Shown here piece after piece: positions 49,757-53,207 of a stretch of 64,000 bases of DNA. The stretch's first letter is position 1. Each line of letters begins with the position of its first letter. Source of the DNA: a virus; IMG/VR virus record IMGVR_UViG_3300037225_000932, positions 64,001-128,000 of that record; one strand, written 5' to 3'. Under the pieces are notes generated by a model that was not told the origin of the DNA, did not search any database, and worked only from the letters and a program-made list of their open reading frames with translations. A program made the translations under genes and the position numbers.

Positions 49757-49916
49757 AAAAAAAAGGAGGCCGACTGAGTTAGTTTAAGGCTAAGGAGTTA
49801 GCTAAGCTCGTTGGCGGTTACTACTAGTCGGCCTGCTCGTCCGCTATATCTCGGCAGAAGTTTTAGGATACGCTACTCAGCGGAGGGTTTCGCGTAAACT
49901 TTTACTTCTGTTGCAC
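49757..49916 (-). ncRNA. candidate pseudoknotted RNA (copy A)
   Basis: ORF-less module; interleaved stems 49904-10/49855-61 and 49879-84/49840-45; terminal hairpin with T tract. Confidence 0.55.
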
Positions 49917-50115
49917 ATTCATTTAGAACTTTATTGAGATTTTCGGGGCATTTATTTTTGCGCAAAAAAAACCCTTGAAGTTGGCATACGTTTTGTGCCA
50001 TTTCAAGGGGTGAACAATGCTTCCAAGTCTGGAAGCGACAGAAAGCCGCAACATTTATTTAGAACTTATTTGTTTTTTTCGGGGCATTTATTTTTGCGCA
50101 AAAGAAAGAGGGGAT

Positions 50116-50316
50116 TTAACCCTCATCCATATCAGCTTCCCAATTGTCTAGGGAATGATCGTCATCATCCCCGTCGTCGATAGTATCTTCAATAAAATCC
50201 TCTAAAATTTCGTAATCTTCGTAATCCTCATCTTCGAGATTTGGCCCATCGTAGAGCGGGGCGACATTATCGCAACCTTGGCAGTCGGGATTTTCGCAAT
50301 GATCGCAGGGGTGCAT
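50116..50316 (-). CDS. small very acidic protein with CxxC-x3-CxxC
   Basis: AAAGGA RBS; D/E-rich. Confidence 0.7.
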   Translation of the reverse strand: MHPCDHCENPDCQGCDNVAPLYDGPNLEDEDYEDYEILEDFIEDTIDDGDDDDHSLDNWEADMDEG

Positions 50317-50461
50317 TTTGCGGTCCTTTTCTTTGACTGAGGATTTAGAACTTTATTGAATTTATCAGGGCATTTGTTTTTGCGCAAAAAAAAAAGAGAA
50401 TTGCCAGGAAACGGATTATCAGTCCGGTCCTAGGTTCTCTTTAATTTATGTCGTTTTTTTT

Positions 50462-50656
50462 TCAGGCTTCCACTTCAGCGGGCATTCCAACCAGTTCTAA
50501 GATCTCATGGTAAAGGCACTGTAAGTCATCGCAGAGACAAAGCTCGGTTCCCTCTTCTGAGAGCAAAACGTAACTGGACCCTTCCCGTAAAATGCTCATG
50601 TCATTGTTGGCGGCCAGGTGTTTCAGGTAGGAAAGGGTAATCAGCATGGCATTCAT
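50462..50656 (-). CDS. small hypothetical protein
   Basis: own motif and AAGGA RBS. Confidence 0.7.
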   Translation of the reverse strand: MNAMLITLSYLKHLAANNDMSILREGSSYVLLSEEGTELCLCDDLQCLYHEILELVGMPAEVEA

Positions 50657-50692
50657 CCTTGTTTGTTGACAAGGGTTTAGAACTTTATAGAT

Positions 50693-50950
50693 TTAATCAG
50701 GGAAAAGATAGCCATGTCGCCGGTCGATATTCCCAGCCTCATGAGCGGCCATCAAAAGAGCAGCATCGACATCTTCAGGTTGAGAAATTAACGCTTTTAT
50801 CCAAACTAACTGAGAAACTTTTGTTCGGGGCCAGGGTTGCTCTAAAGAACTTCGGGTAACATAACAGCTAGTAAATAACTTGCCTTTGTCATTAACAAAC
50901 TGAATCTCAATGCGAAAAGCGTTATTTTCATGAACTTGACGGGTAATCAT
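50693..50950 (-). CDS. small hypothetical protein
   Basis: GAGG RBS; stop lies inside the next motif. Confidence 0.7.
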   Translation of the reverse strand: MITRQVHENNAFRIEIQFVNDKGKLFTSCYVTRSSLEQPWPRTKVSQLVWIKALISQPEDVDAALLMAAHEAGNIDRRHGYLFPD

Positions 50951-51047
50951 GATATTTCCTCTCTTCTGAGGATTTAGAACTTTATAGATTTAATCGGGGA
51001 AAAATATACCTGATATTTCTATTTAATATGTAAATTGTTTTTTGCGC

Positions 51048-51202
51048 AAAAAAGAGACTTTAGGGAACAAGTCCCTAAAAGTCTCTGTATTCAAGTTTGA
51101 TTAAACTTTCCTACTTCAACGCGATTACACTCCATAGGATCGTTTACTTGAATACTGGCGAGCATAGTCAGACGCAGTTCGTCACCAGTCCGTCCATGTT
51201 TA
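51048..51202 (-). ncRNA. candidate three-hairpin small RNA
   Basis: only a 9-codon ORF; ACTGGTGA/TCGCCAGT and GTATTCAAGT/ACTTGAATAC stems plus terminator. Confidence 0.5.
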
Positions 51203-51242
51203 CTTTCTTTTAGAACTTTATTCTCTTTTTTCAGGGCGAAAA

Positions 51243-51404
51243 TTATTCATCGCCCATATTTCGCAGTTCTTTCTTATTTTGTTTTCGATCCTTACGGGCA
51301 TCGGGCTTGCCTCCCCAAGTTGTTGACCGAACGAACTGCCCTTCTTTTCGGGCTTCAATGACCGCGAGCATGACAGGGCTTCGATATTTCTGGTTGCGTT
51401 TCAT
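51243..51404 (-). CDS. 53-aa basic peptide, leaderless (not in ORF track)
   Basis: MKRNQKYRSPVMLAVIEARKEG...; ATG 5 nt after GTTCTAAA. Confidence 0.65.
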   Translation of the reverse strand: MKRNQKYRSPVMLAVIEARKEGQFVRSTTWGGKPDARKDRKQNKKELRNMGDE

Positions 51405-51450
51405 GATGATTTAGAACTTATTAGGAGAAATTCAGGGAATTCCTCTATTT

Positions 51451-51660
51451 TTAGGATAAAGCCTTTTCGATGGCTTTCCTTCCCTTCTCAGTCACAATGT
51501 ATCCATGTTGATTGATGAGAAAATTCTCAGAAAGATTAAGAAAGCCATTAGCGAGCATGTCTTGGAAGAGTTGAGACCCTAATCGGTAAGAAGGATCGGC
51601 GATAAAAGCACTCAATTCTTCTGCTTCATATTCCGTTATGTCGTTTCTGGTGTTCTTCAT
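51451..51660 (-). CDS. small winged-helix-like protein, leaderless
   Basis: VTEKGRKAI; ATG 5 nt after motif; resembles 52775..52987. Confidence 0.7.
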   Translation of the reverse strand: MKNTRNDITEYEAEELSAFIADPSYRLGSQLFQDMLANGFLNLSENFLINQHGYIVTEKGRKAIEKALS

Positions 51661-51681
51661 GATGATTTAGAACTTATTAGA

Positions 51682-52302
51682 TTATTTCAGGGTAATTTCG
51701 ACCGTTACGAAACCGACATTATCTCCAAGACTACCATCGCTATCATTCCCTCTTAGTTCTAAAAGACCATCCTTTTCGACTGTCAAAAGATATTCCTTGC
51801 CGATTACAAAATGTTCTCCACCGGCAACCCTTCCAATTAAAGGAAAACCATCTGGCCCAGTCATTTTATCAGGACCGGCTGAAGACCATCTCCCAGTAGC
51901 TGAAAAATGAAGTTTTTGCCCTTTTCGTACCAGTCCGACCTTTTGCCATGCCTTATTCGCCTCTACTCTAAAAGTTATATGTCTGTTTGGCCCGTCATCC
52001 AAAAGAGAGATTTCTATCTCAAGTTGCTGTTTAAGAGTTGAGAGTTTTGTTATCTCAGTTGTATCTGCCGTTTTGGCAGCTTCAGTAATACCAGCATCTA
52101 TAGCAATCAAGAGTTGTCGTTTAGCAGCGAGACAACTTTGCCGGTAGGCTTTCTCTGCCGCGTCGATGGCTTTCTGGGCCGTTTGGAGAGAAGCCTTGAT
52201 TCTGGAGGACTTCGGGGCGTCCGATGCGTCTGGGGTAATCGTAGAGGCACTGGAGACAACTGCGAAAACGAGCAAAATTGCGAGTAAAATGGAAGTGCGC
52301 AT
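51682..52302 (-). CDS. secreted protein with coiled coil and LecA/PA-IL-like lectin domain
   Basis: signal peptide; VEANKAW...ATGRWS...GPDG...LIGRV...ND..G...DNVG. Confidence 0.7.
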   Translation of the reverse strand: MRTSILLAILLVFAVVSSASTITPDASDAPKSSRIKASLQTAQKAIDAAEKAYRQSCLAAKRQLLIAIDAGITEAAKTADTTEITKLSTLKQQLEIEISLLDDGPNRHITFRVEANKAWQKVGLVRKGQKLHFSATGRWSSAGPDKMTGPDGFPLIGRVAGGEHFVIGKEYLLTVEKDGLLELRGNDSDGSLGDNVGFVTVEITLK

Positions 52303-52404
52303 AGATAAACTCCTTAGTATAAGACAGGAGTTTAGAACTTTATAGTCAAAAATCAGGGCAAAAAAAAGAAAAAAGGGGATAACCGACTATAAGCCGGTTG
52401 GAAA

Positions 52405-52695
52405 TCACTCACAGGGAACAGAGACCTTACCCTCTGTTGAATGATACCAACGGGCCGCAAAGATACGCATAGCGAGCATTAAAGATCCTTCCCCATATTT
52501 CTCTTCAATTTCCTTCTGAATTGCCTTATAGTCGCCATTACTGGCGGCGAAATGACGCCCAATGAGATTATTGATATCCCACGCTTCTCGATAGGTAATC
52601 ATTGAACGACGAGCAGAGCCAGGAAAACGTTGCCGGGGATTTTCTCCCGTATCCGAGCCGGCGGGGTCCGTAATTTTTCTTGTATCTATAAACAT
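52405..52695 (-). CDS. small hypothetical protein
   Basis: start reassigned to MFIDTRK after AAAGGA. Confidence 0.65.
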   Translation of the reverse strand: MFIDTRKITDPAGSDTGENPRQRFPGSARRSMITYREAWDINNLIGRHFAASNGDYKAIQKEIEEKYGEGSLMLAMRIFAARWYHSTEGKVSVPCE

Positions 52696-52774
52696 AGCTC
52701 GTTTTCCTTTCAAGAAATTAGAACTTTATTTGATTTATCAGGGTATTTATTTTTTGCGCAAAAAAAATCGCTTT

Positions 52775-52987
52775 TTAAGCGATTGCGATAGCCATAGCGA
52801 TTTTTCCAAGTTCTGTGACGAATGGGACTTGGAATGGAACTTGACCATTAAAGCCAATGTAGTCCCTCGCCGCGAAGAAGTTAGTCATCGAACTACTCAA
52901 AATATACTTAGGATTTTTCAGAAGCTCCTTTAGTTCGCTGGCCTCACAACTCGTTAAATCTTCGCGGCTGTTTTGATTTTCTGTCAT
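52775..52987 (-). CDS. small winged-helix-like protein, leaderless
   Basis: VTELGKIA; ATG 5 nt after motif. Confidence 0.7.
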   Translation of the reverse strand: MTENQNSREDLTSCEASELKELLKNPKYILSSSMTNFFAARDYIGFNGQVPFQVPFVTELGKIAMAIAIA

Positions 52988-53033
52988 ACTTTTTTAGAAC
53001 TTTATTCGATTTATCAGGGAGTTTATTTTTGCA

Positions 53034-53207
53034 CAAAAAAAACCCGCCGTCAGGTTCGCATCCTGAGCCAGGCGGGACACCGGACTCTCAATAGTTTCGG
53101 AAGGGCGTGTTGCCGGTAAACAACCGTTCCTACTGCCTTGACATTCTTGGCGGAAGACCCTTACGATAAAAGGCAGACTCTCGCGGGTTGGCCTCTTCCG
53201 TGCTTTC
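53034..53207 (-). ncRNA. candidate pseudoknotted RNA (copy B)
   Basis: interleaved 7-bp stems 53194-200/53151-57 and 53170-76/53133-39; terminator CCCGCC..GGCGGG-T8. Confidence 0.55.

Follow-up and report, generated by a model that had tools for sequence, protein, structure and literature searches.

What might a large phage transcribe from promoters that precede no gene? The question is raised by two cassettes, copies A and B, in a stretch of 64,000 nucleotides (the window), which covers bases 64001-128000 of the 173,351-bp IMG/VR record IMGVR_UViG_3300037225_000932, an uncultured phage from peat. Both lie within a minus-strand array of about 62 copies of a promoter-like motif, CCCTGA-N12-AGTTCTAA, that spans window positions 48894-64000 and beyond (genome 112,902-169,952). 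Most copies of the motif have a small single open reading frame (ORF) downstream, and several precede only ORF-less, G+C-richer sequence closed by a hairpin and a U-run. An initial annotation, made from the sequence alone, proposed that two of the ORF-less modules encode one and the same pseudoknot RNA family. Comparison of the two favours an origin as old paralogues, by now strongly diverged, of a single structured RNA.

Two ORF-less units with the same interleaved helices

The elements of both copies were located by script on the minus strand and are given in window coordinates. The unit of copy A (49757-49922, ~166 nt from the end of the promoter to the end of the U-run) follows a promoter at 49923-49948 (CCCCGA box 49948-49943, AGTTCTAA box 49930-49923), and that of copy B (53035-53213, ~179 nt, again from promoter end to U-run) follows one at 53214-53239 (CCCCGA 53239-53234, AGTTCTAA 53221-53214). 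The units are 3.3 kb apart and both use CCCCGA, a rarer variant of the promoter box. Neither holds a credible ORF: no frame in copy A exceeds 6 codons, the one of that length being at the very start of the unit, and a 71-codon frame with a TTG start in copy B (53209-52994) was rejected as a gene because it reads through both the terminator and the promoter that follows, matches nothing in Pfam and is without a counterpart in A. No ORF is common to the two. Copy B ends in a canonical intrinsic terminator, a hairpin with U8 that is called by a terminator scanner (53035-53076; stem 53076-53071/53048-53043 with an inner helix, U8 53042-53035). The corresponding element of copy A (49757-49833) consists of an 8-bp stem (49833-49826/49775-49768) round a 50-nt insert, followed by U8 (49764-49757); the stem is part of the minimum free energy (MFE) fold. 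The description of both copies as ORF-less units that start just after a promoter and end in a terminator is correct, with the terminator of A being atypical.

In both RNAs the helix strands follow one another in the order S1-5', S2-5', S1-3', S2-3', the layout of an H-type pseudoknot, and the two interleaved helices are kept in every member (n = 2). Counted from the first base past the promoter motif, S1 and S2 lie at 12-18/61-67 and 38-44/76-82 in A and at nearly the same places, 13-19/56-62 and 37-43/74-80, in B, so that the annotated stem order is confirmed at nearly equal distances from the promoter. S1 of copy A joins 49904-49910 to 49855-49861 by seven Watson-Crick pairs, and its S2 joins 49878-49884, in the hairpin loop, to 49840-49846 by six Watson-Crick pairs and one G-U pair. 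In copy B both helices consist of seven Watson-Crick pairs (S1, 53194-53200 with 53151-53157; S2, 53170-53176 with 53133-53139). MAFFT gave no structure-consistent alignment of A and B over S1; the S1 comparison was therefore manual, and the formal pair count covers S2. All seven S1 pairs are Watson-Crick in both copies, and two of the seven differ on both sides between A and B. When the alignment is anchored on the ends of S2, each of the six aligned pairs is formed in A as well as in B, and in four of them both bases have changed; control alignments with the partner strand shifted by 1-3 columns are only 25-50% paired. The compensatory changes that had been noted in the stems are thus present in both helices.

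The unpaired joints have kept their sequence. The word CGCGARA lies at RNA positions 28-34 in both copies (CGCGAAA at 49888-49894 in A, CGCGAGA at 53179-53185 in B), an identical offset from the promoter. A word search places CCRAGA against S1 in both (CCGAGA, 49849-49854; CCAAGA, 53145-53150), as part of a joint YGCCRAGA that stands directly 3' of S1 without a gap. These two of the three words named in the annotation recur at the same places; the third, CGUA, does not rise above chance, since MAFFT aligns UAUCSUAA there instead and neither word is rare in the genome. In the order CGCGARA, CGUA, CCRAGA the three occur at the A and B sites only in the 173-kb genome. A further word, ACCGSCAAC, has four occurrences on both strands of the genome, two of which are at matching places in the 3' halves of A (ACCGCCAAC, 49810-49818) and B (ACCGGCAAC, 53109-53117). 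Such G+C-rich words are rare because the phage record has a G+C content of 30.6%. In both copies the GCG within CGCGARA is complementary to the CGU of the CGUA region, a candidate 3-bp inner helix closing the loop that bears the S2 strand. In copy A the S1 hairpin and an inner helix are within the MFE fold, and the apical loop holds the 5' strand of S2.

Homology, chance and the search for relatives

Could two unrelated ORF-less, G+C-richer units permit interleaved helices and a few common words by chance? An H-type pseudoknot with two helices of at least 6 bp can be drawn in 10 of 58 modules of the array (first 110 nt of each), and the best-matching pair among these pseudoknot-capable modules, with the three loops most alike, is A and B. 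In dinucleotide shuffles of A and B, both sequences contain such a pseudoknot with P = 0.0084; adding the observed loop-word score lowers this to 1.9e-5, and adding the concordant positions as well to about 1.8e-6. Corrected for the 1653 possible module pairs, the latter values become 0.003-0.03. None of these values takes account of the S1 changes being compensatory, of CGCGARA lying at one and the same offset, of the rare ACCGSCAAC word, or of the rarer CCCCGA variant and a palindromic junction (described below) that the two copies have in common.

Several observations weigh against common descent and against the fold. Aligned locally by sequence, A and B do not stand out, their score of 14 being under the mean of all module pairs, and with a covariance model derived from copy A only, B scores just 1.6 bits, too little to be retrieved; the case therefore rests on architecture and short words. 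The features were chosen by eye among many modules, and CGUA, as noted, is not significant. With only two sequences, both in one genome, covariation is beyond a statistical test. The nested MFE structure of the B 5' domain is an alternative fold (-19.7 kcal/mol), and the pseudoknot of B becomes competitive only by summing the S1-constrained fold (-15.6) and the S2 duplex (-9.3), a sum that is not exact without a pseudoknot energy model. The 3' element of A, finally, is uncalled by a simple scanner. Set beside the shuffle values and the features that these do not count, chance resemblance is decidedly unlikely. From the comparison of the two sequences we conclude that A and B are probably homologous and that both helices appear to have been kept by selection. 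The pair by itself is a lead rather than a result, and its fold seems reasonably supported for two sequences.

Relatives were sought in public collections by scanning with fixed words rather than structure models. No homologue of A or B was found among GenBank phages by blastn, or in IMG/VR with patterns combining the promoter with the words, the S1 core with the words, or the words with the 3' word; the three-word pattern gave only chance-level pairings among the IMG/VR matches listed, and the chance matches to these patterns fell mostly in G+C-rich coding DNA. In GTDB genomes there were 90 pattern matches, all in G+C-rich coding DNA. The flanks of 118 IMG/VR loci and 50 whole large phages, which carry the ribosomal RNA (rRNA) word of a mimic RNA discussed below, yielded as many pattern matches as a reversed-pattern control, and a two-sequence model of A and B (R2) found no match in 50 large phages. 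No third copy was found within the 64-kb window. A screen of the phage's own genome with the same two-sequence model listed A alone and missed B, and so says little on the rest of the genome; beyond the window, one module whose joint bears a faint resemblance folds differently and was rejected as a relative. No other genome with the promoter motif was found in IMG/VR or JGI metagenome contigs, the motif alone giving 48 single chance matches in the former and a 20-base promoter pattern one plant-like chance match in the latter.

Metagenomes of peat, pond and freshwater contain the phage record itself in near-unchanged form. In four other runs of these kinds the DNA contigs are near-identical, with one single-nucleotide polymorphism at 49813, in the 3' word, and therefore provide no covariation; none of the holders of this sequence listed is an RNA sequencing run. 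The protein adjoining A occurs only on 100% identical sibling contigs and has no other relatives, and a 326-aa protein of the structural region has no close relatives in IMG/VR. As these searches added no homologue, the term 'family' refers to two paralogues within a single genome. The annotated 'same novel family' accordingly stands as far as A and B are copies of one structured pseudoknot RNA outside Rfam, and falls short as to homologues beyond the two.

Known RNA families and candidate functions

No known family accounts for the two RNAs, as the initial annotation had suspected. Rfam 15 gave no match at gathering score in the whole window, and permissive scans of the 3.6-kb region, the two cores and the two full units (4227 families allowed for) gave sub-threshold matches only, none of them for A. 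A and B match no described RNA family and are apparently an undescribed two-member structured RNA.

We propose that A and B are stand-alone phage small RNAs, each made from its own array promoter to its own terminator. The first ~70 nt would form the 7-bp S1 hairpin with an internal loop and possibly the 3-bp GCG/CGU inner helix, and the apical loop would pair with sequence on the 3' side of this hairpin (S2, 6-7 bp) to give an H-type pseudoknot. Between the copies the helices differ in sequence but remain complementary, and the joints CGCGARA, before S2, and YGCCRAGA, after S1, are conserved, which suggests that the knot presents the joints as a recognition surface. Together with an own promoter and terminator, no ORF and no antisense target in the phage, variable complementary helices and invariant joints fit a folded RNA recognised through its joints, probably one bound in trans by a protein. 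Most likely it would titrate a host factor, as decoy or sponge, early in infection; this is favoured because the RNAs belong to an early-type array of tiny genes and folded RNAs that includes a mimic of an rRNA site. That the units are transcribed, that they fold so in the cell and all that concerns function we infer; a protein-binding decoy is our best guess at the function, and the failure to link A or B to any protein or ligand tells against it. Taken as a whole, old paralogues of one phage pseudoknot RNA that serves as a trans-acting protein decoy are a moderately probable explanation.

The rRNA-site mimic is the RNA at 56320-56536, which served as a positive control. It has a local match to large-subunit (LSU) rRNA of 16.5 bits (E 0.005, 56470-56515, minus strand) in the uL11 region of 23S rRNA, and at least 118 IMG/VR contigs, many of them longer than 100 kb, contain its 18-nt rRNA word. 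It has the same promoter and the same stand-alone cassette layout as A and B, which differ from it in having neither an rRNA match nor known relatives: LSU and small-subunit rRNA models do not match A or B, Smith-Waterman scores against E. coli rRNAs are within those of shuffles, and no similarity to 16S, 23S or 5S rRNA was seen. Short likenesses of B to helix H89 of 23S rRNA and to 4.5S RNA were discarded; they are not common to A and are at chance level by our own estimate. In two IMG/VR contigs (L225 and L277; 172 and 372 kb) an insert of the rRNA-mimic RNA contains a compact H-type pseudoknot, in which a hairpin of 10 bp is immediately followed by CCGAGA and its loop pairs with the tail over 6 bp; CGCGARA is missing. 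A relationship of this pseudoknot to A and B is unproven.

Phages provide other precedents for functional RNAs from early promoters, among them the phi29 pRNA and the put RNAs of HK022. The pRNA (RF00044) does not match A or B. The put RNAs, like A and B, come in two diverged copies in each genome, with changes that compensate one another, but consist of a pair of plain stem-loops acting on polymerase in cis, not of a pseudoknot with a terminator.

Were the RNAs to act by base-pairing instead, the conserved single-stranded words would be seeds for host mRNAs and the knot would only stabilise the molecule. A stand-alone unit from promoter to terminator with a U-tail is typical of trans-acting small RNAs. 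The words are short, however, and partly complementary to one another, and the phage genome offers A and B no complementary site of 14 nt or longer; intermolecular duplex scans were uninformative. We consider regulation by base-pairing quite improbable.

A riboswitch-like element would act in cis, with ligand binding by the knot setting termination against read-through into the next gene. H-type pseudoknots are common among aptamers, and those of the preQ1-II/III, SAM-II/V, guanidine-III and fluoride riboswitches resemble A and B in the pairing of a hairpin loop with the 3' tail, in their similar size and in having sequence conserved in joints rather than helices. By inspection, the YGCC joint could also pair with the 3' strand of its own terminator over 5-6 bp in both copies; such an anti-terminator helix is short and was noticed only after the fact. 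Unlike riboswitches, A and B lie outside the leader of any regulated gene: each has its own terminator, and directly after the U-run the next gene has a fresh promoter of its own. As no riboswitch covariance model matches either, a cis-acting switch is highly improbable.

For a self-cleaving ribozyme of a new class one can adduce the compact pseudoknot with invariant joints, the richness of phage non-coding RNA neighbourhoods in ribozymes, and a weak RAGATH-18-like match two modules away. The latter (51108-51138, minus strand; 27.1 bits, E 0.04, below the threshold of 44.9) lies within another ORF-less module (about 51209-51050) and keeps the conserved letters of the family, but its loop has 4 nt against 44 nt in the family. 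No pistol, hatchet, twister, hammerhead or hepatitis delta virus (HDV) model matches A or B. An HDV-type layout, considered separately, was rejected: the segment from the S2 5' strand to the S1 3' strand forms no end-to-end hairpin in either copy, hence no P3 abutting these two strands, and Rfam has no HDV-type match. A new ribozyme is scarcely credible, and the earlier suggestion of a ribozyme or an aptamer finds no support in any match to a ribozyme or riboswitch model.

Type III antitoxin RNAs (ToxI, CptI) are small protein-binding pseudoknots, and phage pseudo-ToxI sets a precedent for a phage RNA decoy that neutralises a host ribonuclease toxin; these antitoxins consist of tandem 34-45-nt repeats that are processed by the toxin and adjoin the toxin gene (PMC3475682, PMC5086642). 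A and B share with them the form of a small pseudoknot RNA that, in their own case, would bind a protein. Unlike the antitoxin arrays they are single units of ~70 nt, 3.3 kb from each other and free of repeats; Tandem Repeats Finder reported only two trivial repeats in 49600-53400, of 9 and 12 nt and elsewhere in the region. The phage has no match to PF13958 (ToxN-type), in a search in which control genomes gave no match either. The idea of an antitoxin mimic was abandoned on the defining feature, the array of tandem pseudoknot repeats, which is missing here.

The one family with a match to B in the permissive scans, below threshold, was RF03136, the S10-Clostridia ribosomal leader, which was examined more closely because the same array holds the mimic of the 23S uL11 site. 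The model matches B with 25.2 bits locally and 21.7 bits globally (gathering score 35.1; E 0.002-0.004 in a small search) and does not match A. Three true S10 leaders have a 5' block and a GGAGCGAA joint, both conserved, that are absent from B; moreover, the leader sits upstream of the S10 operon whereas B is a stand-alone phage cassette. In a calibration on 7.3 Mb of other large-phage DNA the model reached 22.0 bits where an ordinary gene starts and 19.4 bits within a coding frame; with 4227 families searched, the score of B, 21.7 bits globally, is therefore at the level of false positives. That B, and A by descent, imitates a Clostridia-like S10-operon leader and soaks up its repressing ribosomal protein, for which the low G+C content of the phage and the neighbouring rRNA mimic also speak, is the least credible of the readings considered, the comparison of A and B backing S1 and S2 rather than the leader helices.

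The promoter array and a possible role of folded RNAs in phage take-over

The array offers further observations on its promoters and modules. A-N-T-R is preferred just 3' of the motif, whose spacing does not fit sigma-70. Between a terminator and the following promoter stands a palindromic junction of a U-run, GCGC and an A-run, common to A and B (49955-49971 and 53247-53263) and present in other modules; it could be a bidirectional terminator or part of a promoter upstream element. In the modules at 51666 and 51410 the ATG of the ORF is 7 nt past the promoter motif and without a Shine-Dalgarno sequence, and their mRNAs look like leaderless or near-leaderless messages.

ORF-less units also flank the two copies. 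Directly upstream of A, a promoter-to-terminator unit of ~90 nt (49972-50058, minus strand) has two hairpins and no relation to A or B. Directly upstream of B is a unit of ~265 nt (53222-53488, minus strand) with a strong terminator at its end, in which the sole ORF, behind AGGAG, has 4 codons. Another ORF-less module, of ~215 nt (genome 130,880-131,116, minus strand), has a 9-bp terminal stem that encloses several hairpins. Outside the array, a portal-like protein of 1518 aa (10690-15246, plus strand) is split by an intein with a LAGLIDADG domain and bears a DUF559-type nuclease domain at its C-terminus.

To our knowledge, phage counter-defence and host take-over are known almost wholly through small proteins, with RNA decoys such as pseudo-ToxI and RNA anti-CRISPRs as rare exceptions. 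The ~62 promoter modules, each with a single cargo and several with folded RNA only, suggest that RNA can fill the role of small proteins at large scale. With two copies, compensatory helices and invariant joints, A and B are among the better-defined RNAs of the array, and, being small, they lend themselves to probing, pull-down and structural study. Tentatively, and with the odds against so broad a reading, they may be the founders of an undescribed class of phage pseudoknot RNA that neutralises a host protein (a defence nuclease, a toxin or a translation factor) within a take-over arsenal of a dozen or more folded RNAs. If that is true, this large phage would use folded RNAs where others use small proteins.

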